Shown: positions 5,644 to 43,360, counted from the stretch's first letter. The stretch is DNA of 64,000 nt from Shigella phage SSP1 (KY963424), one strand, 5' to 3'. The notes: generated by a model not told the origin, from the sequence alone. Numbers and translations are program-made.

Positions 5644-7020
5644 ATGACTATTGATATTAATAAGCTGAAAGAAGAACTTGGTCTGGGTGATCTGGCTAAA
5701 TCTCTGGAAGGTCTGACCGCTGCTCAGAAAGCTGCTGAAGCTGAACGTATGCGTAAAGAGCAGGAAGAAAAAGAACTGGCCCGTATGAATGACCTGGTTT
5801 CTAAAGCAGTTGGCGAAGATCGTCAGAAACTGGAAGAAGCTCTGACTCTGGTTAAGTCTCTGGACGAGAAATCCAAGAAGAGCGCAGAACTGTTTGCACA
5901 GACTGTAGAAAAACAGCAGGAAACTATTGTTGGTCTCCAGGATGAAATTAAATCTCTGCTGGCAGCTCGTGAAGGACGTTCCTTCGTCGGTGATAGCGTA
6001 GCTAAAGCACTGTACGGTACTCAGGAAAACTTTGAAGATGAAGTTGAAAAACTGGTTCTGTTATCTTATGTAATGGAAAAAGGCGTATTCGAGACCGAGC
6101 ACGGTCAGAGACACCTGAAAGCTGTAAACCAGTCCTCTTCAGTAGAAGTTTCTAGTGAAAGCTATGAAACTATTTTCTCCCAGCGTATTATTCGTGACCT
6201 GCAGAAAGAACTAGTAGTTGGTGCTCTGTTTGAAGAACTGCCAATGTCCAGCAAAATTCTTACTATGCTGGTTGAACCAGATGCTGGTAAAGCTACTTGG
6301 GTAGATGCTAATACATATGGTACTGATGCTACTACTGGTAACGAAGTTAAAGGTGCTCTGACTGAAATTCAGTTCAAAACCTATAAACTGGCTGCTAAGT
6401 CCTTCATTACTGATGAAACTGAAGAAGATGCAATCTTCTCCCTGCTACCATTGCTGCGTAAGCGTCTGATTGAAGCACACGCTGTTTCTATCGAAGAAGC
6501 GTTTATGACTGGTGACGGTACTGGTAAGCCTAAGGGTCTGCTGAAACTGGCTGAAGGCGATAGTGCTAAAGTTATTACTGAAGCTAAAGCTGATGGTTCT
6601 GTTCTAGTAACTGCTAAAACTATCTCTAAACTGCGTCGTAAACTGGGCCGTCATGGTCTGAAACTGAGCAAACTGGTACTTATCGTATCTATGGATGCTT
6701 ACTACGATCTGCTGGAAGATGAAGAATGGCAGGATGTTGCCCAGGTTGGTAATGATGCTGTTAAACTGCAAGGTCAGGTTGGTCGTATTTACGGTCTGCC
6801 GGTTGTAGTTTCTGAGTTCTTCCCGGCTAAAGCTAACTCTGCAGAGTTCGCAGTTATTGTTTATAAAGATAACTTCGTAATGCCGCGTCAGCGTGCTGTT
6901 ACTGTTGAACGTGAGCGCCAAGCTGGTAAACAGCGTGATGCGTACTACGTTACTCAGCGTGTTAACCTGCAACGTTACTTCGAAAACGGCGTTGTATCTG
7001 GTGCTTACGCTGCATCTTAA
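5644..7020 (+). CDS. Major capsid protein precursor (HK97 fold)
   Basis: 458 aa (same length as T5 pb8 precursor); coiled-coil N-terminal scaffolding-like region followed by capsid domain; strongly host-optimised codon usage (CTG, CGT, GGT, GCT, AAA, GAA), unlike neighbours; followed by a strong intrinsic terminator. Confidence 0.85.
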   Translation: MTIDINKLKEELGLGDLAKSLEGLTAAQKAAEAERMRKEQEEKELARMNDLVSKAVGEDRQKLEEALTLVKSLDEKSKKSAELFAQTVEKQQETIVGLQDEIKSLLAAREGRSFVGDSVAKALYGTQENFEDEVEKLVLLSYVMEKGVFETEHGQRHLKAVNQSSSVEVSSESYETIFSQRIIRDLQKELVVGALFEELPMSSKILTMLVEPDAGKATWVDANTYGTDATTGNEVKGALTEIQFKTYKLAAKSFITDETEEDAIFSLLPLLRKRLIEAHAVSIEEAFMTGDGTGKPKGLLKLAEGDSAKVITEAKADGSVLVTAKTISKLRRKLGRHGLKLSKLVLIVSMDAYYDLLEDEEWQDVAQVGNDAVKLQGQVGRIYGLPVVVSEFFPAKANSAEFAVIVYKDNFVMPRQRAVTVERERQAGKQRDAYYVTQRVNLQRYFENGVVSGAYAAS

Positions 7021-7040
7021 TACAGGCTTTTCAGCCGATA

Positions 7041-7065
7041 AGGAGAGCTTCGGCTCTCCTTTTTT
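7041..7065 (+). terminator. Rho-independent terminator after major capsid gene
   Basis: 8-bp GC-rich stem AGGAGAGC/GCTCTCCT with UUCG tetraloop followed by TTTTTT. Confidence 0.75.
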
Positions 7066-7079
7066 ATTGGGAAAAATAA

Positions 7080-7592
7080 ATGCAAATCATCACAGCCGAA
7101 GATTATAGATTATATGGTAGCTTAAAACGACCTGAATTAGAATCTGGTGTAGAAATGATGATTACTGCTGCCAATGCGCTGATCACGAGCCTTCTAGGCA
7201 TGGATGATGCTGATGCGGTAGACCAGTTAATCAATACAAAACCTACACGTAGGAAATATTTTCTGAGTTCACCATCTGCTACCTCCGTAACTAAAGTGAC
7301 GATTAATGATAATGAGATTGACCCAGAGCAGTATAAGCTATACTCTGACGGTATTATCCTTCTCAAATTTAATCCTCCAGAAGGTTATATGGATGTAGCA
7401 TATACACAAGGTGGATTTAATCCAGTGCCTGAAGATCTCAAACTTGCAGCGTGTATGCTAGTAGATCATTGGCATAAACAAGATTATCGCCAAGCTAAAA
7501 CAATTGGTGGTGAAACAGTAACCTTCAATAGCACTAAGTCTGGTATTCCAGAGCATATTCGTACTATTATTGAAGTATATAGGAGAGTATAA
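7080..7592 (+). CDS. Head completion / head-tail adaptor protein (p144-like)
   Basis: 170 aa, first gene after capsid terminator; position and size only. Confidence 0.4.
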   Translation: MQIITAEDYRLYGSLKRPELESGVEMMITAANALITSLLGMDDADAVDQLINTKPTRRKYFLSSPSATSVTKVTINDNEIDPEQYKLYSDGIILLKFNPPEGYMDVAYTQGGFNPVPEDLKLAACMLVDHWHKQDYRQAKTIGGETVTFNSTKSGIPEHIRTIIEVYRRV

Positions 7593-8359
7593 TGTCTCTT
7601 TCCGATCTAGCTAAACAAATTATTAAAGAGCAGCTAGATACTGCAGGACGATCTGAAAATAATAAGAATACTGTTGTGTACTCTGTTGAAACAGGGTTAA
7701 AAGATCCTACCAGAGATGGTACTATTGCTCAAGTATCTTTTAAGTTTTCAAAACCCGTATCACAAGATCTTCTTGATGTTAGAACAGCCTCCATACTAAA
7801 AGCTGTATCCTCTAGTTTAGATATTTCAGGAGATTTAGGTGCTCTAGAAAATTTAATACAAGCAACTGCTGGTAAAAAATCTGCTGTAGGTAAAAAACGT
7901 TCTACAGGCAGAGTACAGGTAAACTTTGGAGATCCTAAAGACGTAGAGGATGGATACTCAGGTGCAATAACAGGTGCTTCCGGACGTTTCGTGTCTAATA
8001 GCAATATGAAGGTTATATTAGAGATAGTTGCTAAAGAATACTTAATAAAGGATATGAAAAAGACAGGAGCGCCATTAAAATTTAGAACCGGTCGCTTTGC
8101 AAATTCTCTAAAAATTAAGGATGTTATGCTTAGAGACGCAGAGACTAGTAAAGGTTCTCCTGAATTGAACGTAACATATAATTATATGACTCGTCCATAT
8201 TCTGTGTTCAACCCCGCAGTATCTACATATAGAAGATTATCTCTACGACCTTATCCTGGCGCTAGAAACCCACAAAAACTTATTGGTGAGGCTATAGCAA
8301 AAGCTGCAAGAGACCTGATTCACTCCAGATATAAAATTAAGGTTAATCAAGGAACCTAA
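7592..8359 (+). CDS. Tail completion protein (p143-like, putative)
   Basis: 255 aa; position between adaptor and tail terminator; start overlaps upstream stop. Confidence 0.35.
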   Translation: MSLSDLAKQIIKEQLDTAGRSENNKNTVVYSVETGLKDPTRDGTIAQVSFKFSKPVSQDLLDVRTASILKAVSSSLDISGDLGALENLIQATAGKKSAVGKKRSTGRVQVNFGDPKDVEDGYSGAITGASGRFVSNSNMKVILEIVAKEYLIKDMKKTGAPLKFRTGRFANSLKIKDVMLRDAETSKGSPELNVTYNYMTRPYSVFNPAVSTYRRLSLRPYPGARNPQKLIGEAIAKAARDLIHSRYKIKVNQGT

Positions 8360-8362
8360 TAA

Positions 8363-8848
8363 ATGGACCATAGAACAAGTATTGCACAAGCTATGGTTGA
8401 CCGAATCTCTAAACAAATGGATGGTTCTCAACCTGACGAATATTTTAATAACCTATACGGAAACGTTTCTCGTCAAACTTATAAATTTGAGGAAATACGA
8501 GAGTTTCCTTATGTGGCAGTTCATATCGGAACTGAAACTGGGCAGTATCTTCCTTCAGGCCAACAGTGGATGTTTTTAGAACTTCCAATCCTGGTGTACG
8601 ATAAAGAGAAAACAGACATTCAAGAGCAACTTGAAAAACTCGTAGCGGATATAAAAACCGTTATTGACACAGGTGGAAATTTAGAATATACTGTTAGTAA
8701 ACCTAATGGATCGACCTTCCCATGTGAGGCAACTGATATGATCATTACATCAGTTAGTACAGATGAGGGTCTACTGGCCCCATATGGTTTAGCAGAAATA
8801 AATGTAACAGTGAGGTATCAGCCTCCACGTAGGTCACTTCGCAGATAA
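8363..8848 (+). CDS. Tail terminator protein (p142-like, putative)
   Basis: 161 aa immediately upstream of tail tube gene; position and size only. Confidence 0.35.
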   Translation: MDHRTSIAQAMVDRISKQMDGSQPDEYFNNLYGNVSRQTYKFEEIREFPYVAVHIGTETGQYLPSGQQWMFLELPILVYDKEKTDIQEQLEKLVADIKTVIDTGGNLEYTVSKPNGSTFPCEATDMIITSVSTDEGLLAPYGLAEINVTVRYQPPRRSLRR

Positions 8849-8874
8849 GTTACAGATTAGGAGAAAATAATTAA

Positions 8875-10281
8875 ATGTCTTTACAACTATTACGTAATAC
8901 TCGAATCTTCGTGTCTACGGTTAAGACCGGTCACAATAAGACCAACACGCAAGAGATTCTAGTTCAGGATGATATTTCTTGGGGTCAGGACAGTAACTCA
9001 ACAGATATTACTGTTAATGAAGCTGGTCCGCGTCCAACTCGTGGTTCTAAACGTTTTAATGACTCTTTAAACGCAGCTGAGTGGAGTTTCTCTACTTATA
9101 TCCTGCCATATAAAGATAAAACTACTAACAAACAGATTGTTCCTGACTATATGTTATGGCATGCACTTTCTAGTGGTAAAGCTCTTAACCTAGAAGGTGA
9201 TACAGGAGCACACAATAACGAAGCTAACTTTATGGTTAACTTCAAAGATAACTCTTATCACGAGTTAGCAATGTTACATATTTATATTCTGACCGATAAA
9301 GCATGGAGTTATATCGATTCCTGTCAGATTAATCAGGCAGAAGTTAACGTTGATATTGAAGATATTGGTCGTGTAACTTGGTCTGGTAATGGTAATCAGC
9401 TTATTCCTCTGGATGCTCAGCCATTTGATCCTGATACTGTAGGTATTGATGATGAAACTTATATGACTATTCAGAGTTCTTATATCAAGAACAAATTGAC
9501 TATCCTGAAAATTAAGGATATGGATTCTGATAAGGCATATGATATCCCTATTACTGGCGGTACTTTCACCATTAATAACAATATCACGTACCTAACCCCG
9601 AATATTATGTCCCGTGTAAATATTCCGATCGGTTCATTTACTGGTGCGTTTGAATTAACTGGTTCACTAACTGCCTATCTAAATGATAAATCTCTTGGTT
9701 CTATGGAGCTGTACAAAGATCTTATCAAGACTCTGAAGGTAGTTAACAAGTTTGAAATTGCACTTATCCTTGGTGGTGAGTATGATGATGAACGCCCGGC
9801 AGCTGTGTTAGTTGCTAAACAGGCGCATGTTAACATTCCTACTATTGAGACTGATGATGTACTTGGTACTTCAGTAGAGTTTAAAGCTATTCCTACAGAT
9901 CTGGATACTGGTGATGAAGGTTATCTTGGTTTCTCTAGCAAGTATACTAAAACCACTGTGGCTAATCTGATTGCTACAGGAGATGGCGCTAAAACTCCAC
10001 CAAAACTAGTTGAATCAATCACAGTTAAATCTGCTGGTAATGTCACTTCAGTAGCGAACAGTAATACTCTACAGATGTCTGTTGAAGTAACTCCGCCAGA
10101 TGCTACTAATAGTGCCGTAACCTGGTCTATTTCTAGTGGTGATGCAGCTACAATTGATCCAGAGTCTGGTCTATTAACTGCGGACACTACTAAGACAGGC
10201 TCTGTTACTGTCAAAGCTGTAGCTAAAGACGGTTCTGGTGTAGAAGGTACTAAGAGCATTACAGTTACTGCTGGTGGCTAA
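8875..10281 (+). CDS. Major tail tube protein (pb6-like) with C-terminal Ig-like (Big_2) domain
   Basis: 468 aa (T5 pb6 is about 464 aa); AGGAG SD; C-terminal ~100 aa (ITVKSAGNVTSVANSNTLQMSVEVTPPDATNSAVTWSISSGDAATIDPESGLLTADTTKTGSVTVKAVAKDGSG) is a clear bacterial Ig-like domain. Confidence 0.75.
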   Translation: MSLQLLRNTRIFVSTVKTGHNKTNTQEILVQDDISWGQDSNSTDITVNEAGPRPTRGSKRFNDSLNAAEWSFSTYILPYKDKTTNKQIVPDYMLWHALSSGKALNLEGDTGAHNNEANFMVNFKDNSYHELAMLHIYILTDKAWSYIDSCQINQAEVNVDIEDIGRVTWSGNGNQLIPLDAQPFDPDTVGIDDETYMTIQSSYIKNKLTILKIKDMDSDKAYDIPITGGTFTINNNITYLTPNIMSRVNIPIGSFTGAFELTGSLTAYLNDKSLGSMELYKDLIKTLKVVNKFEIALILGGEYDDERPAAVLVAKQAHVNIPTIETDDVLGTSVEFKAIPTDLDTGDEGYLGFSSKYTKTTVANLIATGDGAKTPPKLVESITVKSAGNVTSVANSNTLQMSVEVTPPDATNSAVTWSISSGDAATIDPESGLLTADTTKTGSVTVKAVAKDGSGVEGTKSITVTAGG

Positions 10282-10285
10282 TTAA

Positions 10286-11185
10286 ATGTACTACTCTCTA
10301 ATGAGAGAGTCAAAAGTTATAGTTGAGTATGATGGTAGGGCATTTCATTTTGATGCCCTATCAAACTATGATATACAGACTTCCTACGAGGAATTCAAGA
10401 CTCTTCGTAGGACTGTTCATCGTAGAACTAACTATGCAGACTCTATTATAAATGCTCAAACTCCCTCTTCTATCTCTCTAGCAGTAAATTTCAGTAATAC
10501 TCTTACTGAGGCTAACTTCTTTGAATGGTTAGGTTTTGATAGAAAAGGTAATACTTTCTTACTCCCACTATATAGTAGTAATATTGAACCTATTATGTTC
10601 AATATCTATATAGTAAATAAAGATAATAACTGTGTATATTTTGAAAACTGTTATGTATCTACGGTAGATTTTTCTTTAGATAAGAACATACCAATTCTTA
10701 ATGTTGGTATTGAGTCTGGGAAATTCTCAGAGGTATCTACCTATAGAGAAGCAGCTTCTATTATACAGGGTGAAGTAATGTCTTACAGCCCAGTAATAGC
10801 TTCTACTAATGGCAGCATCTTACCCGGTCTTATTTCTGCCTCTTTATCTTTCCAACAGCAGTGCTCCTGGAGAGAGGATAAGAGTGTTTTTGATATAAAT
10901 AAAATTTATAATAATAAAAGAGCCTATGTAACTGAAATGAATGCTTCGGCAACCATCTCTCTATACTACTTAAAACGTTTTGCAGGAGATATGGTTTATA
11001 ATATAGAACCGGAGATAGATATACCTTTAACGATAAGAAATAATAATATTTCTATAGATTTTCCTTCAGCACGTATTACAAAACGCCTAGAGTTCTCAGA
11101 TGTGTATAGAGTTGAGTGGGATATTATACCTACTGCTTCTTCAGACCCAGTGAGAATAGATTTCTTTGGAGAAATTAAAAAATGA
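10286..11185 (+). CDS. Tail structural protein (p140-like, putative)
   Basis: 299 aa; position after tail tube gene; assignment by synteny only. Confidence 0.35.
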   Translation: MYYSLMRESKVIVEYDGRAFHFDALSNYDIQTSYEEFKTLRRTVHRRTNYADSIINAQTPSSISLAVNFSNTLTEANFFEWLGFDRKGNTFLLPLYSSNIEPIMFNIYIVNKDNNCVYFENCYVSTVDFSLDKNIPILNVGIESGKFSEVSTYREAASIIQGEVMSYSPVIASTNGSILPGLISASLSFQQQCSWREDKSVFDINKIYNNKRAYVTEMNASATISLYYLKRFAGDMVYNIEPEIDIPLTIRNNNISIDFPSARITKRLEFSDVYRVEWDIIPTASSDPVRIDFFGEIKK

Positions 11186-11586
11186 TTAATTTAAAAGATA
11201 TTACTCTTGATACTCGTACTATTACTCTTTCCTACCCAGGTATGCCGAACTTTAAACTAGAACTTAACTATATGTCTCGTGCTACCTCTAAACGTGTTAT
11301 TTCTTCTGCTAAACGCGATGAATGGGTTAACGGTACTTTGATTCAGGTGCAGGATGATGATAAGTTCATTGAAGCCTTTGTTGACGCAGCTATTAAAGGC
11401 TGGACTGGCTTAACTGTTGGTGACGTTGAAAAACTGATGCTGATTGAAACAGACGCTGATCCTACTACTGAAGTTCCTTTTAGCCGCGATAATGCTGTAA
11501 TGCTCATGCAGAACTCTGCTGCGTTTGATTCTTGGATCAACCAGACAGTGTTCCACTTAGACACTTTTCGTAGCCCAAAAGCGTAA
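11182..11586 (+). CDS. Tail assembly chaperone (G-like, putative)
   Basis: 134 aa; position between tube and tape measure genes; 3' end overlaps an ORF open in the +1 frame. Confidence 0.4.
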   Translation: MINLKDITLDTRTITLSYPGMPNFKLELNYMSRATSKRVISSAKRDEWVNGTLIQVQDDDKFIEAFVDAAIKGWTGLTVGDVEKLMLIETDADPTTEVPFSRDNAVMLMQNSAAFDSWINQTVFHLDTFRSPKA

Positions 11587-11647
11587 AGAACTCCTAGATG
11601 CTGTTGCTGATTTTGCAGATAAATGTATTAAAAGCTCAGCATCTAAA

Positions 11648-12016
11648 ATGACCAAACAACAATATTTGATACTTTGTGAGTCAATGGGTATAGAACCTGA
11701 TCCTAAGGCTATGCCCGTTGAACTCGAAGATTTTCCACCTATTGTATCTATTAGTATGAATATTTATAACAGTCTGATTGACTGTTTCATACCTGGTGAC
11801 TTTCCTATTTTTATAGGTAAGGATAAGGCTGCATTAGGTGTTTTATTTGATATTTATGGGATTACTGATCCTATAGAAAAAGAATTTGTTCTACACATTA
11901 TCAATATATTTGATGCTAAAGCTGTAGATGCTGCACGTAAGCGTGCTGAGAAGCATAAACCGCAAAACGGAAGGATTCCTAACGTTAAGCCACATGCTAG
12001 ATCTCGTGCACGGTAA
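11648..12016 (+). CDS. Tail assembly chaperone second ORF (T-like); +1 frame is open from 11561
   Basis: 122 aa from ATG 11648 with no recognisable SD; same frame is open back to 11561, overlapping the last 26 nt of the upstream ORF. Confidence 0.35.
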   Translation: MTKQQYLILCESMGIEPDPKAMPVELEDFPPIVSISMNIYNSLIDCFIPGDFPIFIGKDKAALGVLFDIYGITDPIEKEFVLHIINIFDAKAVDAARKRAEKHKPQNGRIPNVKPHARSRAR

Positions 12017-12051
12017 AAGTTTCCTCCAATGGGCGTTCCACGATGAGGCTT

Positions 12052-12082
12052 GGCTCTGGGTGATTTGCCCAGAGCCTTTTTT
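12052..12082 (+). terminator. Rho-independent terminator upstream of tape measure gene
   Basis: 9-bp stem GGCTCTGGG/CCCAGAGCC, 7-nt loop, followed by TTTTTT. Confidence 0.75.
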
Positions 12083-12099
12083 ATTGGGAAAAATAAAAC

Positions 12100-15000
12100 A
12101 TGACTGATAAGCTAATACGAGAATTACTAATAGACGTTAAACAGAAGGGGGCAACTCGTACTGCAAAGTCTATTGAAAACGTATCTGATGCGTTGGAAAA
12201 TGCTGCTGCTGCTTCCGAACTGACAAATGAGCAGTTAGGTAAAATGCCCAAAACCCTTTACTCCATTGAGAGGGCAGCAGATAGAGCAGCGAAAAGTCTT
12301 ACTAAAATGCAAGCTAGTAGGGGTATGGCTGGTATCACTAAATCTATTAATGATATTGGTGATAAACTAGACTACCTAGCTATCCAACTTATTGAAGTAA
12401 CAGATAAACTAGAAATTGGATTCGATGGAGTTTCTAGATCTGTTAAAGCAATGGGTAATGATGTTGCAGCTGCAACAGAGAAAGTTCAAGATAGATTGTA
12501 TGATACTAATAGAGCATTAGGTGGCACAGCTAGAGGTTTTAATGACACTGCTGGTGCCGCTGGTAGAGCTTCTAGAGCTATTGGTAATACTTCTGGTTCA
12601 GCGCGTGGTGCAACTCGTGATTTTGCGGCAATGGCTAAGATCGGTGGTAGTCTACCTATTATGTACGCAGCTCTTGCTTCCAACATCTTCGTTTTGCAAT
12701 CAGCATTTGAACAACTTAAACTAGGTGATCAGCTAAATCGTCTAGAAAAATTTGGTGTTATAGTAGGTACTCAGACAGGTACTCCTGTTCAGACCCTTGC
12801 TAGATCACTACAAGAAGCTGCTGGATATGCTATTTCTTTTGAGGAAGCGATGAGACAGGCGTCTTCAGCATCTGCTTATGGATTTGATGCCGAACAACTT
12901 AATAAATTTGGTTTAGTAGCTCGTCGTGCTGCTGCTGTTCTTGGCGTTGATATGACTGATGCACTTAACCGTGTAATTAAGGGTGTATCTAAACAAGAAA
13001 TCGAACTTCTGGATGAACTTGGTGTCACCATCCGTCTTAATGATGCATACGCTGATTATGTTAAACAGTTAAATGCTGCAAACACAGGTATAACATATAA
13101 TGTTAATAATCTTACCACTTTCCAGAAGCAACAAGCATACGCTAACGCGGTAATTGCTGAATCTACTAAGCGTTTTGGCTACCTAGATGAAGTACTACGT
13201 GCAACTCCGTGGGAGCAATTTGCTGCTAATGCAGATGCTGCACTAAGAAAAATACAACAAGCTGCTGCTAAGTATTTAGGGCCAGTAATTGATGCTATCA
13301 ACACAGTATTTTATACATCTCAGGCTTCTATATCTGCTGAAGCAGCTAGAGCTCAAGAAAAAACTAATAGACAGATAGACCCTACCAACGTTGGTGCTGT
13401 TGCTTTAAGTTTAGCTGCTTCTGAAGAAGGCTATAATAAAGCTCTAGATATGTATAAGGAATCTCTTGATAAGCGTAATAAGCTAAAATCTGAGTTCGAT
13501 AAACGAATGGAACAAGCAGATTTCTATACAAAACTAGCTATACGTCAGGTTGGAGAAGGTATTCCTGTTGGTATTGCAGCAGCAGGTGCCTCGGAGGCCA
13601 ATAAGCAATTTGTAGCAGAAACTGCAGCTATGGGTCTACAAGTAACTAGACTTGGTAAGGAAGTAGAGGATTCTACAGAGAATCTCAATGCTTGGAAATC
13701 AGCGTATCAAGCTGCTGGGGCTGCTGCTGCAAAAGCTAATCCAGAGTTTCAGAAGCAAATTAATCTACAGAGAGATACTACTGATCCTGATGCTGTATAC
13801 GATTTTAACTCTACTGTATTAAAAGGACTAACTGAGCAGCAGAAAGCGTACAATCAGACTAAGAAAACTGCTAGTGACTTAGCTAATGATATACAGAACG
13901 TTGCTCAGAATACAGATACTGCTGCTAAAACTAGTGCTACTTTAGCAGATGCTATAAAAAACATAGAATCTCTATCTCTAGGTACTGGTAAGAGTGCTGA
14001 TGAATATGTTAAAAATCTTAACCTAGGCTACAATACTCTGTCTGAAATGAAAACTGCGTCTCAGGCCTTATCTGAGTATGTTAAACTAACTGGTAATGAA
14101 ACTAAAAATCAGTTAGCAGTTCAACAGAAGATAGCTGATGTATATAACCAAACTAAGGATAAAGAAAAAGCACAGGAAGCTGGTAGGCGTTTAGAACTCC
14201 AACAGTTAGAAGAGCAAGAAGCTGCTTTACGCCGTGTTCTTCAAACAAACCAGGGAAATAAAGCTGTTGAGAAAGAAATTGAAAAAATTCAGCTGGAGAA
14301 ACTTAAGCTTACCAATCAGGGCATGGAAGCTCAGAAGAAAGTTAAGGATTATACAGATAAAATTCTGGGTGTAGATCGTGAGATAGCTCTTCTGAATGAC
14401 CGTACTATGACTAGCACTCAGTATAGATTAGCACAGTTAAAGTTAGAACTAACCATAGAGGAGGAAAAATACGAGTGGTATTTAAAACAAGCGGATAAAC
14501 AAAAAGAGGCAGAACAGTCTAGACGTGCTCAAGCACAGATAAGTAGAGAGTTATGGGAAGCAGAGAAACAAGCTACTGCTACTCATGTATCCGCCCTTAT
14601 GGATGCCTTAGAGGTTAGCCAAACGCAGAGAAATGTCACTGGTCAGTCCCAGATTCTCACTGAAAGGTTATCTATTCTGCAGCAGCAGCTGGAGCTGTCT
14701 AAAGGTAATACTGAAGAAGAAATTAAATATCGTAATGAGATTTATAAAACTTCAGCAGCCTTAGAACAGCTTAGGAAACAGAGGGATAGCCAGATGCAGC
14801 AACAGGTAGGGTCTTCTGTAGGTGCTGTATATACTCCTACAACTGGACTATCTGGAGAAGATAAAGATTTTGCTGATATGCAAAATAGAATGGCTTCTTA
14901 TGACCAGGCAATCTCTAAATTATCTGAGCTAAACTCTGAAGCAACCGCTGTGGCTCAAAGTATGGGTAATCTAACTAATGCCATGATCCAGTTCTCCCAG

Positions 15001-15780
15001 GGATCTTTAGATACTACTTCCCTGATTGCTTCTGGTATGCAGACTGTGGCCTCTATGATTCAATATAGTACTAGTCAACAGGTTAGTGCAATTGATCAGG
15101 CTATTGCAGCAGAGCAAAAACGCGATGGTAAATCAGAAGCATCTAAAGCTAAGTTGAAGAAGCTGGAAGCTGAAAAGCTGAAGATTCAACAAGACGCAGC
15201 TAAGAAGCAGATTATCATCCAAACTGCAGTAGCTGTAATGCAGGCGGCAACAGCTGTTCCATACCCGTTCTCTATCCCTCTGATGGTAGCGGCAGGTTTA
15301 GCGGGTGCTCTGGCCCTCGCCCAAGCATCTTCTGCATCGAGTATGTCGAGTATTGCTGATTCGGGAGCTGATACAACTAGTTACTTAGCCTTAGGAGAGC
15401 GCCAAAAGAATATAGATGTGTCCATGTCTGCTAATGCAGGTGAACTATCTTATATCCGTGGCGATAAAGGCATAGGCGGTGCTAATTCTTTCGTTCCTCG
15501 TGCTGAGGGTGGTAACATGTACCCAGGGGTTAGCTATCAAATGGGTGAGCATGGTACAGAAGTAGTTACACCTATGGTTCCTATGAAAGCTACACCTAAT
15601 GATGAGCTAAAAACCTCATCTAACTCAACTTCAGGAAGACCCATCATCCTGAATATTAGTGCTATGGATGCTGCAAGTTTTAGAGAGTTTGCTTCTAGTA
15701 ATAGTAGTGCTCTAAGAGACGCAGTAGAATTAGCTCTGAATGAGAACGGTGCTAGTCTGAAAACATTAGGAAATTCTTAA
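12100..15780 (+). CDS. Tail tape measure protein (pb2-like)
   Basis: 1226 aa (T5 pb2 about 1219 aa); long Ala/Gln/Lys-rich coiled-coil, hydrophobic segment near C-terminus (VPYPFSIPLMVAAGLAGALALAQA). Confidence 0.85.
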   Translation: MTDKLIRELLIDVKQKGATRTAKSIENVSDALENAAAASELTNEQLGKMPKTLYSIERAADRAAKSLTKMQASRGMAGITKSINDIGDKLDYLAIQLIEVTDKLEIGFDGVSRSVKAMGNDVAAATEKVQDRLYDTNRALGGTARGFNDTAGAAGRASRAIGNTSGSARGATRDFAAMAKIGGSLPIMYAALASNIFVLQSAFEQLKLGDQLNRLEKFGVIVGTQTGTPVQTLARSLQEAAGYAISFEEAMRQASSASAYGFDAEQLNKFGLVARRAAAVLGVDMTDALNRVIKGVSKQEIELLDELGVTIRLNDAYADYVKQLNAANTGITYNVNNLTTFQKQQAYANAVIAESTKRFGYLDEVLRATPWEQFAANADAALRKIQQAAAKYLGPVIDAINTVFYTSQASISAEAARAQEKTNRQIDPTNVGAVALSLAASEEGYNKALDMYKESLDKRNKLKSEFDKRMEQADFYTKLAIRQVGEGIPVGIAAAGASEANKQFVAETAAMGLQVTRLGKEVEDSTENLNAWKSAYQAAGAAAAKANPEFQKQINLQRDTTDPDAVYDFNSTVLKGLTEQQKAYNQTKKTASDLANDIQNVAQNTDTAAKTSATLADAIKNIESLSLGTGKSADEYVKNLNLGYNTLSEMKTASQALSEYVKLTGNETKNQLAVQQKIADVYNQTKDKEKAQEAGRRLELQQLEEQEAALRRVLQTNQGNKAVEKEIEKIQLEKLKLTNQGMEAQKKVKDYTDKILGVDREIALLNDRTMTSTQYRLAQLKLELTIEEEKYEWYLKQADKQKEAEQSRRAQAQISRELWEAEKQATATHVSALMDALEVSQTQRNVTGQSQILTERLSILQQQLELSKGNTEEEIKYRNEIYKTSAALEQLRKQRDSQMQQQVGSSVGAVYTPTTGLSGEDKDFADMQNRMASYDQAISKLSELNSEATAVAQSMGNLTNAMIQFSQGSLDTTSLIASGMQTVASMIQYSTSQQVSAIDQAIAAEQKRDGKSEASKAKLKKLEAEKLKIQQDAAKKQIIIQTAVAVMQAATAVPYPFSIPLMVAAGLAGALALAQASSASSMSSIADSGADTTSYLALGERQKNIDVSMSANAGELSYIRGDKGIGGANSFVPRAEGGNMYPGVSYQMGEHGTEVVTPMVPMKATPNDELKTSSNSTSGRPIILNISAMDAASFREFASSNSSALRDAVELALNENGASLKTLGNS

Positions 15781-15787
15781 AACTGGA

Positions 15788-15814
15788 GGAGGACTTTGAG
15801 TCCTCCTTTTCTTT
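15788..15814 (+). terminator. Rho-independent terminator after tape measure gene
   Basis: 7-bp stem GGAGGAC/GTCCTCC, loop TTTGA, followed by TTTTCTTT. Confidence 0.65.
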
Positions 15815-15833
15815 ATGGAAAAATAAAAATTTC

Positions 15834-15862
15834 TTGATAAAATTTTCTAATACTATTATAAT
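15834..15862 (+). promoter_or_regulatory. sigma70-type promoter upstream of distal tail protein gene
   Basis: TTGATA - 17 bp - TATAAT; followed by AGAGGAG SD and ATG at 15890. Confidence 0.5.
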
Positions 15863-15889
15863 ATTGTTATTAAAGAGGAGAAATTAACT

Positions 15890-16504
15890 ATGAGATTACC
15901 AGACCCATACACGAATCCGGAACTTTCAGGCTTAGGATTCGAAAGTGTTAACCTGATTGATAATGACCCAGTAATTCGTGATGAGTTACCAAATGGTAAA
16001 GTTAACGAAGTTAAGGTATCCGCTCAATACTGGGGTATAAATATTTCTTACCCAGAATTATTTCCAGATGAATATAGTGTTCTAGATGCTTTTATTCTAG
16101 AATACAAAAGGACTGGTGGTTATATAGATGTTATATTACCACAATACGAAGCTTTTAGAGTTAGAGGTAATACTAGTCTAGTAAATATACCTGCTGGACA
16201 GAAGGGTTCTAATATAACTATGGATACAAAAGGACTTCTTACAGGTACTCCAAAACCGGGGGATCTATTTAAGCTGTCTAACCACCCAAAAGTATATAAA
16301 ATAACATCATTTAACAAATCAGGTAATACATGGTCCATAAACCTATACCCTGATTTATTTATAACTACTACTGGAGCGGAGAAGCCAGTATTTAATGGAA
16401 TACTATTTAGAACAAAACTCATGAATGGTGATGCTTTTGGATCTACACTAAATAATAACGGAACATACTCCAACATCTCATTAAATTTACGGGAAAGTCT
16501 ATGA
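15890..16504 (+). CDS. Distal tail protein (pb9-like)
   Basis: 204 aa, identical in length to T5 pb9; first gene after tape measure. Confidence 0.6.
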   Translation: MRLPDPYTNPELSGLGFESVNLIDNDPVIRDELPNGKVNEVKVSAQYWGINISYPELFPDEYSVLDAFILEYKRTGGYIDVILPQYEAFRVRGNTSLVNIPAGQKGSNITMDTKGLLTGTPKPGDLFKLSNHPKVYKITSFNKSGNTWSINLYPDLFITTTGAEKPVFNGILFRTKLMNGDAFGSTLNNNGTYSNISLNLRESL

Positions 16505-27315: not shown

Positions 27316-27321
27316 AAGAAA

Positions 27322-27346
27322 ACCCCAGTGGATTGCCCACTGGGGT
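27322..27346. terminator. Bidirectional rho-independent terminator between convergent late and early modules
   Basis: 10-bp stem ACCCCAGTGG/CCACTGGGGT with 5-nt loop, flanked by AAAAGAAA upstream and TTATTATT downstream, so it is U-tract-competent on both strands. Confidence 0.75.
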
Positions 27347-27352
27347 TTATTA

Positions 27353-31224: not shown

Positions 31225-32182
31225 ATTTCGCAGCTCTAGCCAAGATTCTATCAATGTCACCTTGAGATAGCTTCTCAACTTCACGGAAGTAAAGTTCAAG
31301 TTCACCTAACATATCAAGATCAACAAGATTTAACTTAGCGTCTTTAGTAACTCGATGATTAATCTTCTTATCTAATAAATCAGAGTCTTTGATAGACTTT
31401 AATTGAACAACGTCACCAGTAACTTCATAGACTACACGATCATAATCACTAGGTTCCATCTCTTCACCAGCTCCGATTGTTTTACGAATCAGTTGTGGTA
31501 AATCACCGAGTTCAATCCATTCTACTTTTAATGTATCGGTATCAATGATAAAGCAACCATTTGTACCTTTTGTGCGTTCTCTATGGAACGATGTAGTTAA
31601 TGGAGACCCTGGGTAGAGGAGTCTAGTAGATCCGATAGTCTGGCTATTAGTATAAGAATGTAAATCGCCAGCAATTACAGTATCATAACAGTTGTACTTA
31701 GTTAGATCAATTTCTGGTTTTACATGTGGAGGGATTTCACCACGAACATGCGTGAAACATAGTTTTGATTCAGATGGTTTCCACTTAGACTTATGGATCT
31801 CATCATACGGAACAATATCAAATTCAGGGGAACGATATGGTTTGGTAATTACTTCCCACTTCCCACTCGTTACTTTATTAATAACTCCCGCATAATGATA
31901 TAGGCATGAAATAGTTTTAGTTAACATTTCATGATTTCCAGTAAAGATTTTGCCCGGATGGTCAAGTCTTGACATGAACTGTTCAAGCAGTTCTATTTCT
32001 TCTGACGACGGGTCGGCAACATCAAGTATATCACCACCAGCAATATGAAGATCACAGTTATGATTATGGAATATATCATTTAACCGTTCTCCTAGCATCA
32101 GGAAGCGACGCTTCTGCCATTCCTTTGGAACTTTATCTTGTCCTAGTTTGATATGATGATCAGCACTAAATAATATTCTCAT
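31205..32182 (-). CDS. SbcD/Mre11-like nuclease (T5 D12 position)
   Basis: 325 aa; calcineurin-like phosphoesterase motifs: SADHH, GGDILD, GNHE, GDLH. Confidence 0.85.
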   Translation of the reverse strand: MRILFSADHHIKLGQDKVPKEWQKRRFLMLGERLNDIFHNHNCDLHIAGGDILDVADPSSEEIELLEQFMSRLDHPGKIFTGNHEMLTKTISCLYHYAGVINKVTSGKWEVITKPYRSPEFDIVPYDEIHKSKWKPSESKLCFTHVRGEIPPHVKPEIDLTKYNCYDTVIAGDLHSYTNSQTIGSTRLLYPGSPLTTSFHRERTKGTNGCFIIDTDTLKVEWIELGDLPQLIRKTIGAGEEMEPSDYDRVVYEVTGDVVQLKSIKDSDLLDKKINHRVTKDAKLNLVDLDMLGELELYFREVEKLSQGDIDRILARAAKYVKDYN

Positions 32183-32184
32183 TG

Positions 32185-32211
32185 GTTAAAAAGAAAGGGG
32201 CCGAAGCCCCT
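32185..32211 (-). terminator. Intra-operon hairpin/terminator between the D11-like and SbcD-like genes
   Basis: On the - strand: 6-bp GC stem (AGGGGC/GCCCCT) with 4-nt loop followed by TTCTTTTT; the SbcD-like start 3 nt downstream has no SD. Confidence 0.45.
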
Positions 32212-32218
32212 CTATTTA

Positions 32219-33269: not shown

Positions 33270-33376
33270 TCTTTTGAATAGCTTAATAATTAGGTCGGAA
33301 TTTCCTCTAGCTAGTAAGTATAGCTTTTCATAATCGAAGAATTTAATTTTTGTTTTCTCCTCGAATTTATGTATAT

Positions 33377-33406
33377 ATTATACTAGATTTCGAGAGAATT
33401 TAGCAA
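33377..33406 (-). promoter_or_regulatory. sigma70 early promoter (downstream copy of tandem pair)
   Basis: - strand: TTGCTA - 18 bp - TATAAT with AT-rich upstream (AAAATTTTAG). Confidence 0.6.
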
Positions 33407-33477
33407 CTAAAATTTTTATTTTTCTGCTTCGGACTTTCTTATCAAACCGAAACTTTCTCTCTCAAATTTATGTATAT

Positions 33478-33506
33478 ATTATACATCATTTATGAGCTAT
33501 TGCCAA
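33478..33506 (-). promoter_or_regulatory. sigma70 early promoter (upstream copy of tandem pair; overlaps 3' end of helicase gene)
   Basis: - strand: TTGGCA - 17 bp - TATAAT; the -10 and following 14 nt are identical to the copy 101 bp downstream. Confidence 0.6.
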
Positions 33507-34842
33507 ATGCAATTTTAGCTAATTGAACTGCTTTCTCCGGAGTCATAGTAATAGTTTTCCACCCGTTATTACGATATACTGCCATACGTCCAGAAGCCTG
33601 TCTTAGTCCAGTACCACCTTTCATAATTAGATCTACAACAATAGGATCGAGTTTACCCTTGACAATACGTTGAACACGGCCTGCAAGCTGTTCAATGAGA
33701 GATTCATTATTAATAAGACTTCCCATTATTAAACAAGACAGCTCATTAAGGGAAATACCTTCAGAGAAGATACTTTGAGCGGCTGCGAGTACACAAGGTC
33801 CACCTTTTGCTATATCTTCCTGAATTTTTAATCGATCATCTAAGTGGGTTGCCCCTATAATTTCATATGTTGTAACACCACGCTGTGCAAGAGCTTCTAG
33901 TACTGTTTGGATTAACTCTGTTCTGTCACTTACAATGAGTACTTTATGCCCCATATTCACATATAAATGTGCTAGATTTATAATAGTCTCTCGATATTCA
34001 GGATGGTTGTACACATCATTAGCACGTAATGCCCATGGCACATTCTGATTTCCTGATAACTCAACAGGCACGGAGTACCTATGGATTGTAGGTGCAATAG
34101 TATTATTAACCGGCGGGCTAAAGATCTTATATCCAAAGAAATCTTTGAACATAACTTGTAGACCATCTTTTCTTTTTAATGTTCCAGATAGCCCGATTTT
34201 ATAGCGAGCACATGATATTTCTAGGAAGTTAGTGAAAGTTGTAGCCACACAATGGTGAACTTCATCAACTATAACAGTACCGAATACTTTAGAAAGATTA
34301 TTCGCATGTTTATTCACTGTTTGAATATTACTGACCACAATTGGTGGGTCAATATTGTATTTCCCGGAACCTATGATGCCTGGTTCAAACCCAAACCATT
34401 TACGAACTTCTGCCGCCCACATTTCACGAATAGATGTGTTGGTACAAATTACCAAAGTTTTCTGGCCAAATTTATACGCAAGCGCAAGGGCTAGGATAGT
34501 TTTACCAAATCCAGGCTTACCATTAATAATACAGGTATCATCGCATTCTTCGTATATTGGAAGCTGGTCTTCTTCACGCAGCTTGAACTTAGGTTTTGGT
34601 ATATCTACCGGAGCTAATGTGCGTTTATCAACTAATTCGTATTTTACTCCTTTAGCATCTAGTAAGTCTAGACGTGTAATAGGAATCCACTTAATCTCTT
34701 TGGCAACAACACCACTATTCTTATACATAATAGGGTATTTACTAGTCATTGTCTCAATGTGATAAGTGGTTTGCTTACTACAATAATCCCAAAGTTCATC
34801 ATCGGGCTTGAAATAGGCTTTATTAGATATAACAACCTTCAT
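33490..34842 (-). CDS. SF2 DNA helicase (DEAH-type; T5 D10 position)
   Basis: 450 aa; Walker A GKPGFGKT, Walker B VIVDEVHH, motif III SGT, C-terminal helicase domain with QLAGRVQR arginine-finger motif. Confidence 0.8.
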   Translation of the reverse strand: MKVVISNKAYFKPDDELWDYCSKQTTYHIETMTSKYPIMYKNSGVVAKEIKWIPITRLDLLDAKGVKYELVDKRTLAPVDIPKPKFKLREEDQLPIYEECDDTCIINGKPGFGKTILALALAYKFGQKTLVICTNTSIREMWAAEVRKWFGFEPGIIGSGKYNIDPPIVVSNIQTVNKHANNLSKVFGTVIVDEVHHCVATTFTNFLEISCARYKIGLSGTLKRKDGLQVMFKDFFGYKIFSPPVNNTIAPTIHRYSVPVELSGNQNVPWALRANDVYNHPEYRETIINLAHLYVNMGHKVLIVSDRTELIQTVLEALAQRGVTTYEIIGATHLDDRLKIQEDIAKGGPCVLAAAQSIFSEGISLNELSCLIMGSLINNESLIEQLAGRVQRIVKGKLDPIVVDLIMKGGTGLRQASGRMAVYRNNGWKTITMTPEKAVQLAKIAFGNSS

Positions 34843-35336
34843 AATTTTATTCTAAGTCTAGGAATTTCAGGCTCCTCTTGATGGACTTGATAAATAACAG
34901 GGCTATTATTTACCAGAATATAGCTTATATAAGCTGGAACATAGGATAATACAAATGGATATGGAACCTTAGCTACATAGCATTGGTATTTTCCGTTATA
35001 AATTCTAGCTGAATGCAAAACTTTAGAGGTGACAACATCATAGAACGTAGTTTTCTTCCAGTTAATAAGATTTCCATCAGAATCTATAAATTGGCTACGC
35101 TTTGACCCAACTAATTGAGACAACATTGATATTCTACCTCTAATAGGGTAGAGCTTGTATGGTAATTCTTTCCGTTTCTCAAATAGAATAAGCCTACGTT
35201 GAGAAAACGTGCCAGGCAACTTCCTGTTATCTAGCACATATTTATTATATCTTGTTGTAATTACGGAATAATCACCTTCTTGCTCAATTGATACAAATGC
35301 CCGTAAAGCATATACGGGCAATTTGAAATCAAGCAC
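34839..35336 (-). CDS. Hypothetical protein
   Basis: 165-aa ORF between DNA polymerase and SF2 helicase genes; overlaps both by a few nt. Confidence 0.4.
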   Translation of the reverse strand: MLDFKLPVYALRAFVSIEQEGDYSVITTRYNKYVLDNRKLPGTFSQRRLILFEKRKELPYKLYPIRGRISMLSQLVGSKRSQFIDSDGNLINWKKTTFYDVVTSKVLHSARIYNGKYQCYVAKVPYPFVLSYVPAYISYILVNNSPVIYQVHQEEPEIPRLRIKL

Positions 35337-37896
35337 CGAGAATCCTTCTCACGTTATCCAAATCTTTACATACAGCAATAAACTTATCATCCTTGTATTT
35401 GCTATGATCTGGATGCTCTTTATCCATTGCAGCTAGTTTCTTATACTCGAACTCTGCATCAAGTAATACACCCTTAACATAACGAGTATATTCATCATCA
35501 TCAATACAAGCGATTGATGGGTGCTGTTTCTTCATCTTACCACAAGAATAGTCACGAGAACCTCCAGCTTCAGAATCTGAATCAATACCAATCGGACAGC
35601 CAGGAATACTGATACCACGGTCTTTTTGAATATTACGAATCAGGATTTCATTGTATTGGTCGATCAAATCCTCACGAACAATAGCAACTACGGAGTCGTG
35701 AACCAGCATAACAATCTTCATCTCTTGTTCTAGGCCAAGAGAGATGATCTCATTATCTGCATCTACAGCCCCTAAAAGGAGACTATCAGAAGAAGCAGAC
35801 TGAATGATTGCGTTAAATCCAGAACGGATTTCTTCACCCTGAACACCACGGTCTTCGGAGTGGATATTATGCAGACGACGTTTACGACCAAAGTGACTAT
35901 AGATAAATCCATGATTCTTGATCTGATCGTGGCACTTATCAATCCAACGCTTAAGCTGTGGGAACTGACCGAAGTAAGTTTCAATGTACTCTTTAGCATC
36001 TGCAACAGTACACTCTACAAACGGTTCACCTGTCTTAGCAGCCTGTTCCAGAAGAGCTTCGTTAACAGAATGAGCTACTTTAGCTGGGCCAGAACCATAC
36101 AGAATACCAAAGGTGATTGCTTTAGCTGCTTGACGCAGAGCTGGGAATAGCTTTTTAACATCACGAGGCTCGCATTGGAGTTTAAATACCATGTGTGCGA
36201 TGTTAGAGTGGAAGTCAGGGTATTTATCTGGTTCATTTCTCATGTTGATAAATACTTGTTGCATATTTCTATCGCCAGATAGAACAGCAGCATAATAAAC
36301 TTCCGCAGTTGTTAAGTCCCATGCAATTACACGGTATCCTACAGGGGCTACTACACAACCCTTGATAATGGATTCATCACGTGGTAACTGTTGCAGGTTC
36401 AGTTTACCAGAAGAACTCAGACGACCAGAAGTAGTCATATGTTCATGGAAGCCAGTACGAATGCAACCATCAGCATCAATACTCAGAAGAATTTTCTCAA
36501 CGTAAGTAGAGATCAGCTTAGTCAGCTTACGAATCTCTAGTAGAGTCTTAGCAATTGGATGCTGCGTAGACAATTCGTTCAGAGCTTCTGCATCTGTAGA
36601 GTCTGCTCCAGTATCCGTCAATTTACCTGTTGGAGTTAACCCAACATAATCAAACAGAAGAACACGGAGTTGTTTAACAGAGTTTGGGTTAAACGCTTCG
36701 TTCTGATCTTTCTCTAGCTGAACGACTTCTGGGTAAGTATACAGCTTCTCACGGGCTTTATTCAGATTATGAGTTAACTGATACTGAGCTTCTTTCAAGC
36801 GATCAATAGAAATTGGTACACCACGATCCTCAACACGCTGGAGAAATACACAACCAGGCATTAGGACATCATAATACAGGCTGCAAAGTTTTTCATTCTT
36901 CTCAATTTTTGGTAAGAAGAAGTTGTGCAAACGTAGTGTGGCATCAGTATCTTTTGCAGCGTAAGGCCACATAATATCAAACGGAATTAAATCATAGGTG
37001 AAATCTTCTTTCTTGATTTTATGTGCTTTGCAGTAATCCTCCTTGAACTTATCTAGTTCAAAGTCATAGTCACCCATATCGGTATACTTCATTGCTAGAG
37101 ATTTCAAGCCATGAGTACCACGACGCTCATCTAGAACATAATGCTGCAACATTGTATCATGGAGCCTGCGTTCTTTATGTGCTTTATCAAAAGTAAGTCC
37201 CAGATGGTACTTATAAAAGTGCATATCAAACTTCAAGTTGTGAAAAACAATAGTGTGGTTTTCACTATCTAGAATTTTCTGGAGATAATATACTGCAACC
37301 TCTGTGAGACAATCAGAATCGATATACACACCCTGATACTCTTGGTGAGACATAGAAACACCAAGCAGATAACCATCTCGACAGTATAGTGCTGAGGTTT
37401 CGGAGTCGAATGCGACAGGTCCGATAACCATATTATACACCATCTTGATATATTCTTCCGCCTCGTCAGGGTCAGTAATAGGACGGTAATCACCAGCTTT
37501 TGCAATCTTCTCACGACCATTGATAATATCGTGGATATTTTCTACTGTTGCATCGAAAACTGGTTTCATTTCAGGCTTAAAGTGTAACTGGGCTGGGCTG
37601 ATACTCGCAATCCAGTTAGCATATCCATTATACTCTACACGTTTACCAGTATAGTCACCAATGCCTTTCTTACCTGCGAAATACAGGAAAGGTTCAGCAC
37701 CTACTAGTATAACAAAATCGTAATCATTCGGATCAAATGGGTTTTCTGGTGTTCCAATAGTAATGTGCTTTTTAAGCAAACGACCGGATAACTTTTCGTT
37801 ACACATATGGAATACATCAACTTTCTCGCCGTATAGCTGGAAATGTTTATCGTAACGAGTGTTATTTAGAGCTTTATCAACTACTGCTATTTTCAA
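35329..37896 (-). CDS. DNA polymerase, family A, with 3'-5' exonuclease domain (T5 DNA polymerase-like)
   Basis: 855 aa (same length as T5 DNA polymerase); exo motif FDSETS; pol motif A-like DLTTAEVY, motif B RQAAKAITFGILYG, motif C MLVHDS. Starts with TTG at 37894-37896, 7 nt after GAGGAG. Confidence 0.95.
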   Translation of the reverse strand: MKIAVVDKALNNTRYDKHFQLYGEKVDVFHMCNEKLSGRLLKKHITIGTPENPFDPNDYDFVILVGAEPFLYFAGKKGIGDYTGKRVEYNGYANWIASISPAQLHFKPEMKPVFDATVENIHDIINGREKIAKAGDYRPITDPDEAEEYIKMVYNMVIGPVAFDSETSALYCRDGYLLGVSMSHQEYQGVYIDSDCLTEVAVYYLQKILDSENHTIVFHNLKFDMHFYKYHLGLTFDKAHKERRLHDTMLQHYVLDERRGTHGLKSLAMKYTDMGDYDFELDKFKEDYCKAHKIKKEDFTYDLIPFDIMWPYAAKDTDATLRLHNFFLPKIEKNEKLCSLYYDVLMPGCVFLQRVEDRGVPISIDRLKEAQYQLTHNLNKAREKLYTYPEVVQLEKDQNEAFNPNSVKQLRVLLFDYVGLTPTGKLTDTGADSTDAEALNELSTQHPIAKTLLEIRKLTKLISTYVEKILLSIDADGCIRTGFHEHMTTSGRLSSSGKLNLQQLPRDESIIKGCVVAPVGYRVIAWDLTTAEVYYAAVLSGDRNMQQVFINMRNEPDKYPDFHSNIAHMVFKLQCEPRDVKKLFPALRQAAKAITFGILYGSGPAKVAHSVNEALLEQAAKTGEPFVECTVADAKEYIETYFGQFPQLKRWIDKCHDQIKNHGFIYSHFGRKRRLHNIHSEDRGVQGEEIRSGFNAIIQSASSDSLLLGAVDADNEIISLGLEQEMKIVMLVHDSVVAIVREDLIDQYNEILIRNIQKDRGISIPGCPIGIDSDSEAGGSRDYSCGKMKKQHPSIACIDDDEYTRYVKGVLLDAEFEYKKLAAMDKEHPDHSKYKDDKFIAVCKDLDNVRRILGA

Positions 37897-37957
37897 ATTT
37901 AATCTCCTCTTGGTAAGTAAGTATAACTTCAGTGTTTCTTCTCTAACTTACCAATAT

Positions 37958-40383: not shown

Positions 40384-40400
40384 AGGTTTAATTTACCAGA

Positions 40401-41940: not shown

Positions 41941-41970
41941 CAAATTTCTTCCTTATCAATTTATATAAAT

Positions 41971-43353: not shown

Positions 43354-43360
43354 ATACATT

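Follow-up and report, generated by a model that had tools for sequence, protein, structure and literature searches.

In the late module of Shigella phage SSP1 (KY963424), within the 64,000-nucleotide stretch of its DNA that we analysed (the window), one 21-nucleotide sequence stands directly after two strong hairpins, one behind the major capsid gene (site 1) and one ahead of the tape measure gene (site 2), and a close variant stands after a third hairpin, behind the tape measure gene (site 3). We consider it likely that at sites 1 and 2 this sequence is the U-tract of an intrinsic terminator joined to the weak ribosome-binding site (RBS) of the next gene, and that at site 3 the variant is the upstream part of the late promoter P-G25. 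The motif is thus probably a composite of ordinary signals, and not one new control element. The window comes from a Tequintavirus (Demerecviridae) whose best matches over bases 6500-16000 are Salmonella phages STP-SP2 and SPC35, at 96% identity; about 550 T5-like phage records match the same bases. Seven lineages were compared, namely the window's own, Klebsiella phages, Serratia phage Slocum, Proteus phage RP7, Providencia phage PR1, Pectobacterium phage My1 and Vibrio phage phi3, the distant relatives being reached by tblastn against a phage collection.

The repeat is as the preliminary description gave it. Positions 7060-7080 and 12077-12097 both read TTTTTTATTGGGAAAAATAAA, positions 15807-15829 read TTTTCTTTATGGAAAAATAAAAA, and a strong hairpin precedes each (7040-7061, 12052-12076 and 15785-15809). 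The start codons of sites 1 and 2 do follow within 0-2 nt, the ATG at 7080 sharing the last A of the motif and the ATG at 12100 coming after an intervening AC. The core 11-mer, GGAAAAATAAA, occurs three times in the 64 kb window counting both strands (128 kb), only at the three sites, against 0.09 expected, and it reaches three copies in none of 100 shuffles. A repeat finder independently groups the three sites as one family (D8), and no further exact copy is present in the roughly 48 kb of the genome outside the window, as judged from the complete genome of STP-SP2, which is 96% identical. Taken together, these counts indicate that the repeat is real and not a product of chance. The 21-mer can also be folded into a weak A-U hairpin (UUUUAUU/AAUAAAA) with GGGAAA in its loop, to which we give little weight because any U-tract followed by an A-rich spacer would pair in the same way.

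At sites 1 and 2 the motif resolves into three parts: T6ATT is the U-tract of the terminator, GGGA is a weak Shine-Dalgarno (SD) sequence, and the A-rich run is the spacer before the start codon. With the stems that precede them, these parts are arranged as follows.

7040-7061, plus strand: predicted intrinsic terminator of site 1, after the major capsid gene (AAGGAGAGC-UUCG-GCUCUCCUU; z = -3.8)
7060-7068, plus strand: site-1 U-tract T6ATT, the first 9 nt of the 21-mer, directly 3' of the stem
7069-7072, plus strand: weak SD GGGA of the adaptor gene, 7 nt before the ATG; duplex with ACCUCCUUA, -4.2 kcal/mol
7073-7079, plus strand: A-rich spacer AAAATAA, seen in the sequence, A-rich but variable in relatives, pairing weakly with the U-tract
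12052-12076, plus strand: predicted intrinsic terminator of site 2, after the tail chaperone-like gene (GGCUCUGGG...CCCAGAGCC; z = -4.95)
12077-12085, plus strand: site-2 U-tract T6ATT, seen in the sequence and in relatives
12086-12089, plus strand: weak SD GGGA of the tape measure gene, 10 nt before the ATG; -4.2 kcal/mol
12090-12099, plus strand: A-rich spacer AAAATAAAAC, seen in the sequence, its length varying in relatives (for example AAAATAA in L025, L027 and L028)

The hairpins were scored by a terminator scan that takes the folding energy of the 40 nt preceding each T-tract. Sites 1, 2 and 3 score -19.4, -20.3 and -15.2 kcal/mol, respectively. Nothing else on the plus strand of the late module (1-27,300) scores below -15 kcal/mol except a terminal bidirectional terminator at about 27,320-27,350. 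The predicted stems of the three sites have 9-11 pairs, are followed by T6ATT or T4CTTTAT, and give fold z-scores of -3.4 to -4.95. Among relatives, compensatory changes are seen in five of the nine pairs of the site-2 stem and in two of the eleven pairs of the site-1 stem, which otherwise hardly varies in sequence within the family; in Vibrio phi3 another stem occupies the site-1 position. Rho-independent terminators have been annotated, computationally, at the homologous site 1 in T5 (AY587007), BF23 and Slocum, and at the homologous sites 2 and 3 in T5, BF23, Slocum and PR1. Reading the sequence for a bidirectional terminator at the motif sites led us to reject one, since no T-run follows the hairpin on the minus strand. 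The bidirectional terminator at the end of the module (27318-27347, about -20 kcal/mol on each strand) lies where the plus-strand late module meets the minus-strand early genes, and the motif does not come after it.

The preliminary description held that the two start codons have no SD sequence, which proved to be incorrect. At both sites GGGA pairs with the 3' end of 16S rRNA over 4 bp at a distance of 5-10 nt from a genuine start, and from this pairing and position it would serve as a functional SD. The absence of anti-SD complementarity about 5-13 nt from the start, by which SD-independent or leaderless initiation is recognized, is not what these sites display. The pairing is weak, ranking about 38th among 50 annotated T5 genes (median -6.15 kcal/mol), in the lower quarter. 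The corresponding tetramer in relatives is GGAG (My1), GGAGG (Vibrio phi3) or GGGT (RP7 and the Klebsiella phages) at site 1, where the Slocum record annotates GGA as an RBS, and GGAA, GGGT, GGTG, GAGG or AGGAG, 6-10 nt before the ATG, at site 2; natural variants in close relatives retain the GG (TTGGAAAAATAAATG, TTAGGAAAAATAAATG). As for the starts themselves, the PDB chains of p144, the T5 homologue of the adaptor (8hqo_R and 9ilp_a), have 170 residues and begin MQIITAEDY, all 170 residues have been modelled by cryo-EM in the T5 virion (PMC11313276), and distant relatives share a conserved N-terminal protein sequence even where overall amino-acid identity falls to 29-30%. The product of the T5 tape measure gene, pb2, is marked in AY692264 as identified by N-terminal sequencing.

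Elsewhere in the window, a D12/SbcD-like nuclease gene on the minus strand (MRILFSADHH..., ATG at 32182) has a terminator-like hairpin upstream (about 32182-32213) in which GAGGGGC-UUCG-GCCCCUU and a T-run are followed by 5 nt (AACCA) and the start codon, with no G-rich SD. The leader of its T5 homologue scores only -1.7 kcal/mol against the anti-SD. Lacking such complementarity in its sequence, this gene is a candidate for SD-independent initiation beside a terminator.

The same arrangement is present at sites 1 and 2 in all seven lineages. In each case a hairpin is followed by T5-6AT(T/A), a G-rich tetramer, 5-10 mostly A/T bases and the ATG, the form T5-6ATT being common to all seven at site 1. 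Whatever the lineage, the tetramer behind the U-tract is G-rich and SD-like (GGGA, GGGT, GGAA or GGTG, with the canonical GGAG, GAGG, GGAGG and AGGAG in My1 and Vibrio phi3), and its GG is conserved only where an ATG follows, being lost at site 3 in Slocum, RP7, PR1, My1 and Vibrio phi3. T5 itself is without the site-2 motif: a mobile open reading frame (ORF) has been inserted directly after TTTTTTATT, with a different weak SD, CAGGAAAACATTAGATG (-4.3 kcal/mol), in front of pb2. The exact 21-mer therefore seems to be dispensable. In fact, the design is generic and not a T5-specific signal, since the same layout occurs between two genes of an unrelated Pseudomonas Pakpunavirus, as AAGGGGAGC-TTCG-GCTCCCTT, TTTCATT, GGAG, ATAAAAAA and ATG, with TTTTTCATT between the UUCG hairpin and GGAG. 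We also considered whether sites 1 and 2 arose by a recent duplication or were homogenized by gene conversion, and rejected this: the two sites differ in the Klebsiella phages (GGGTAAAAT versus GGAAAAAATC) and their stems are unrelated, so the likeness of the sites is old and partial, and not concerted.

Site 3 is a different case. The suggestion that the motif marks a late promoter is supported at this site only, and the promoter is one already known. Its parts, and the start that it serves, are these.

15785-15809, plus strand: predicted intrinsic terminator of site 3, after the tape measure gene
15812-15833, plus strand: A/T-rich segment upstream of the -35 hexamer, at the position of an UP element, with the third 11-mer at 15817-15827; inside the P-G25 feature of AY692264 (start TATGGAAAAATAAAAATTTC)
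15834-15862, plus strand: core of P-G25, TTGATA, 17 nt, TATAAT (11 of 12 consensus matches)
15875-15892, plus strand: strong SD GAGGAG and start codon (ATG 15890) of the pb9 homologue; -9.1 kcal/mol

AY692264 places 'promoter P-G 25' between pb2 and pb9 as a 75-nt feature (start TATGGAAAAATAAAAATTTCTTGATA) that differs from the window by one base, and AY587007 names it 'putative late promoter T5P39'. Site 3 is this same promoter, with the TTGATA-17-TATAAT core, the A-rich upstream block and the strong RBS AGAGGAG; we find no difference of substance from T5, only a host-range lineage of Salmonella/E. coli Tequintavirus rather than T5. The late promoters of T5 are sigma-70 promoters, P-G25 is active late in vivo, with transcripts that appear 30 min after infection and then accumulate, and an UP element in T5 promoters is mentioned in the legend of Figure S5 of the same study (PMC7472727). 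The A-rich run of the third copy sits where an UP element would, and its fit to one is a matter of position and composition. Six other Demerecviridae lineages also have a terminator, an A/T-rich run, a -35 and a -10 at site 3, and across the lineages only ...ATAAAAWWTTC, beside the -35 hexamer, is conserved there. Downstream of P-G25, the leader ATTAAAGAGGAGAAATTAACTATGAGA (15871-15895, plus strand) looks the same as the 'RBSII' ribosome-binding site of the pDS/pQE expression vectors.

The genes around the three sites, all on the plus strand, were ordered from the ORF list of the window and the annotation of SPC35.

5644-7020, plus strand: major capsid protein gene, stop codon 7018-7020 (ORF list, SPC35 annotation)
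7080-7592, plus strand: head-tail adaptor or head completion protein gene, homologue of T5 p144, 170 aa (ORF)
between the adaptor and major tail protein genes, plus strand: tail completion and tail terminator protein genes (ORF list, SPC35 annotation)
8875-10281, plus strand: major tail protein gene (ORF list, SPC35 annotation)
ending at 12016, plus strand: baseplate tube protein gene, then two small chaperone-like genes
11182-11586 and 11648-12016, plus strand: first and second (tail chaperone-like) of these chaperone-like genes
12100-15780, plus strand: tape measure or pore-forming tail tip protein gene, homologue of T5 pb2 (ORF, SPC35 annotation)
15890-16504, plus strand: distal tail protein gene, homologue of pb9 (ORF, SPC35 annotation)

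This order suggests how the junctions might work. Transcripts of abundant proteins would be ended by a strong intrinsic terminator, those of the capsid at site 1 and those of the tail tube protein and chaperones at site 2. Straight after the U6AUU of the terminator come GGGA, the A-rich spacer and the AUG, with which the gene of a low-copy protein opens (p144 at site 1, pb2 at site 2). Neither site leaves space for a promoter, so the p144 and pb2 genes can be transcribed only by read-through. Termination combined with a weak SD would lower expression by one to two orders of magnitude, which would match the stoichiometry of the virion: T5 has 775 pb8 capsid subunits versus 12 subunits of the p144 adaptor, and the tape measure protein lies in the lumen of a tail tube made of 40 trimeric rings (PMC11313276). 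Sites 1 and 2 would be expression step-downs, placed where the copy number needed falls sharply, as from 775 to 12. At site 3, transcription would restart at the strong promoter P-G25, with a strong SD, for the tail-tip genes. The preliminary description had also offered an A-rich, SD-independent initiation region coupled to partial termination. Its coupling of an initiation region to termination fits, partial termination being suggested by the layout of the genes, and SD-independence falls to GGG(A), a weak SD that is G-rich in all seven lineages.

Each half of this arrangement has a familiar counterpart. The leaky terminator after gene 10 of phage T7 is an internal attenuator in a phage late operon, and here too a GC-rich hairpin with a U-tract follows the gene of the most abundant structural protein, and the genes downstream are promoterless and would depend on read-through. 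The junctions described here differ in that the RBS of the next gene begins on the base after the U-tract, that the design is used twice, and that it has hardly changed at the base level within a phage family. On the translational side, U- and A-rich leaders enhance initiation in E. coli in an S1-dependent manner, and A/U-rich initiation regions with weak SDs are found there. The GGGA of sites 1 and 2 (4 bp including one G-U pair), 7-10 nt from the AUG with a U-run upstream and an A-rich spacer, is of this kind, except that its U-run doubles as the tail of a terminator.

Upstream of the major tail protein gene, inside the tail terminator gene, TTGACA, 17 nt and TATACT are found at 8664-8692 (plus strand). 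This is the counterpart of P-J5, a T5 late promoter annotated in AY692264, and probably the start of the transcription unit that runs to the site-2 terminator. Farther along, the frame of the second chaperone-like gene is open from about 11561 and overlaps the end of the first chaperone-like gene (11561-11586) in the +1 frame, and a fusion of the two by a frameshift of the lambda G/GT type would require a +1 or -2 shift.

An important caveat is that several points weigh against reading sites 1 and 2 as a terminator joined to a weak RBS. The leakiness of the terminators, the use of GGGA as a functional SD and the purpose of dosage control are all suggested by the layout and pairing described above. 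The conservation of site 1 far exceeds, judging from the aligned sequences, what a generic terminator and a weak RBS would need: Providencia PR1 has the very same 45 nt before the site-1 ATG, although the two adaptor proteins are just 29% identical. The 11-mer is shared with site 3, where its role is another, and has to be put down to convergence on A-rich sequence or to chance within one lineage. Finally, the junction of the D12-like gene, which has no SD, implies that SD-independent initiation next to a terminator does occur, and GGGA may matter less than we suppose. As to the conservation, the block 7041-7071 is the most conserved stretch in a six-lineage alignment, and a 55-nt site-1 query has at least 99% identity in 355 phage records. 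A possible reason is strong selection on a junction that is expressed at a very high level and in which single mutations of the stem are harmful; room is also left for a role in factor binding or processing. Searching the available literature for a transcriptome of T5, or for the motif strings, gave no result.

Two further conserved elements bear on such roles, one before each terminator.

7025-7036, plus strand: small hairpin GGCU-UUUC-AGCC, between the capsid stop codon and the site-1 terminator (minimum free energy folds)
12020-12051, plus strand: conserved non-coding block TTTCCTCCAATGGGCGTTCCACGATGAGGCTT, 32 nt, between the chaperone-like stop codon and the site-2 terminator

The GGC...GCC of the small hairpin is kept in six of the seven lineages, all but Vibrio phi3, with differing loops; PR1 has GGCA...UGCC in place of GGCU...AGCC, an apparent compensatory change, and in Proteus RP7 the capsid stop codon falls in the loop. 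The 32-nt block is conserved in all seven lineages, unlike the adjoining C-terminus of the chaperone, which is free to vary. Within the block, an anti-SD-like CCUCC is able to pair with an SD-like GAGG, and there is no covariation to be seen in it because its sequence is invariant. One idea is that the block belongs to a small RNA derived from the 3' untranslated region (UTR) and ending at the site-2 terminator. An Rfam search of 6900-16000 gave chance-level matches only, and none for the block; a target search with its anti-SD-like sequence as the seed of a small RNA gave only chance 10-mers; and a metagenome scan with the block pattern gave, among the matches listed, almost only chance hits and two T5-like contigs, with no added diversity. 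Coding was rejected as the reason for the conservation. A frameshifted extension of the chaperone through site 2 is offered by the ORF 11928-12107, which reads through terminator and motif, yet the phase relative to the chaperone stop codon differs by lineage and a 1-nt indel breaks the peptide in the Klebsiella phages. The block has no consistent reading frame.

We asked whether the hairpin, U-tract and GGGAAAAAUAAA could instead form a dedicated cis-regulatory site, in RNA or DNA, at which a trans-acting factor tunes read-through or translation of the low-copy structural genes. Candidates for the factor would be a late regulator of the phage or the host proteins Hfq, CsrA or ribosomal protein S1. 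A hairpin with a U-tail followed by A-R-N triplets resembles the features bound by Hfq, and GGA in a loop resembles CsrA sites. The unusual conservation of the primary sequence at site 1, the conserved elements before both terminators and the ability of the 21-mer to present GGGAAA in the loop of a small A-U hairpin would all suit such a factor. However, natural variants change the G-run, the length of the T-run and the spacer; the site-2 motif is wholly lost in T5; the sites differ from each other in distant lineages, with no co-variation between them; the G-rich tetramer drifts just as an SD would; and no candidate factor is known. We regard a dedicated site as unlikely. A broader form of the idea takes the junctions together with 7025-7036 and 12020-12051 as a family-specific regulatory RNA module that would set the dose of low-copy virion proteins and be read by a trans-acting factor or by a small RNA from the site-2 3' UTR. 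What suggests it is that the junctions are nearly base-identical from the E. coli/Salmonella phages to the Providencia/Proteus phages, across which the neighbouring proteins are about 30% identical; we hold it to be equally doubtful.

The junctions could also be sites of RNA processing or stability, with RNase E cutting the U/A-rich single strand after the hairpin to yield capsid or tail-tube mRNA with a protective 3' hairpin and a separate downstream mRNA that begins a few nucleotides ahead of the SD. An AU-rich single strand beside a stable hairpin is a context that suits RNase E, such a stretch adjoins the hairpin here, and the stem-loop with its cUUCGg tetraloop is strongly conserved. Nothing in the sequence demands cleavage, however, and intrinsic termination gives the same 3' end. 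We judge this improbable as the explanation of the motif, although it is compatible with the terminator and weak RBS and not exclusive of them.

Least probable is that sites 1 and 2 are themselves late promoters, with the motif as an UP element as in P-G25; we give this very little credence. It is the public record that makes it worth weighing. AY587007 (T5 ATCC 11303-B5; L043 in our set) annotates a 'putative late promoter T5P40' at 9952-10041, which spans the same site-1 hairpin and motif and the first 41 nt after the ATG; BF23 has a Sigma70Pred prediction there; the same 11-mer lies within a real promoter at site 3; and the Tequintavirus lineage does have weak candidate hexamers (TGCAAA, 17 nt, TATAGA). 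These hexamers, however, fall within the p144 coding sequence, and the 170-residue form of p144 is the one in the virion. The core of T5P40 would lie inside the p144 gene and so could not express it. AY587007 made room for a promoter only by shortening ORF137 (10079-10513), whose start is wrong, 78 nt too far downstream; T5P40, like the shortened ORF137, is best regarded as an annotation error. A consensus scan at a threshold of 9 of 12 matches found no hexamer pair in 7060-7130 or 12077-12150. The Klebsiella, Slocum, RP7 and PR1 lineages conserve the terminator and SD but lack the candidate -10, TATAGA, and the register of the hexamers to the 11-mer is unlike that in P-G25. With the start codon 0-2 nt after the motif and no sigma-70-like hexamer pair, the proposal that the motif is a late promoter or binds a factor is not supported at sites 1 and 2. 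A T4-type late promoter (TATAAATA) was dismissed on reading the sequence, as that word is absent from the motif.

Strong promoters of the T5 type also occur outside the late module. Repeat families D1, D2, D5 and D6 are arrays of them (for example AAATTTTACTTGCT...TATAATAT), at 54733-63265 on the plus strand and 33354-52070 on the minus strand. Several of the array promoters stand directly after terminator hairpins, as at 58331 and 60945, and one array hairpin, AAGGAGATC-TTCG-GGTCTCCTT, is closely like the site-1 stem.

In some relatives, extra ORFs are inserted at the same junctions. At site 1 they occur in L006 (9376-9948), L009 and L024, upstream of the terminator; at site 2 they are 15020-15766 of L023, which is T5p137 of T5 and lies directly after TTTTTTATT, and 15048-15803 of L045 (Vibrio phi3). 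Both of the inserts that were scanned carry CapR, that of L006 with T5orf172 just above the cut-off as well and that of T5 with DUF4379 (zinc finger); the Vibrio phi3 ORF at site 2 gave no Pfam match. The inserts look like mobile nuclease-type genes, and the terminator junctions seem to be preferred landing sites for them.

The conservation of the junctions across the family is mildly notable, and the finding overall is ordinary. Its interest beyond annotation is small, because the parts are ordinary and are largely annotated already in public records of the T5 family. A compact conserved junction of this kind could be a natural step-down part for phage engineering, if its read-through and translation were measured. 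For the phages themselves, the late module appears to be built of transcription units, with internal terminators placed where the required copy number of the encoded proteins falls steeply.

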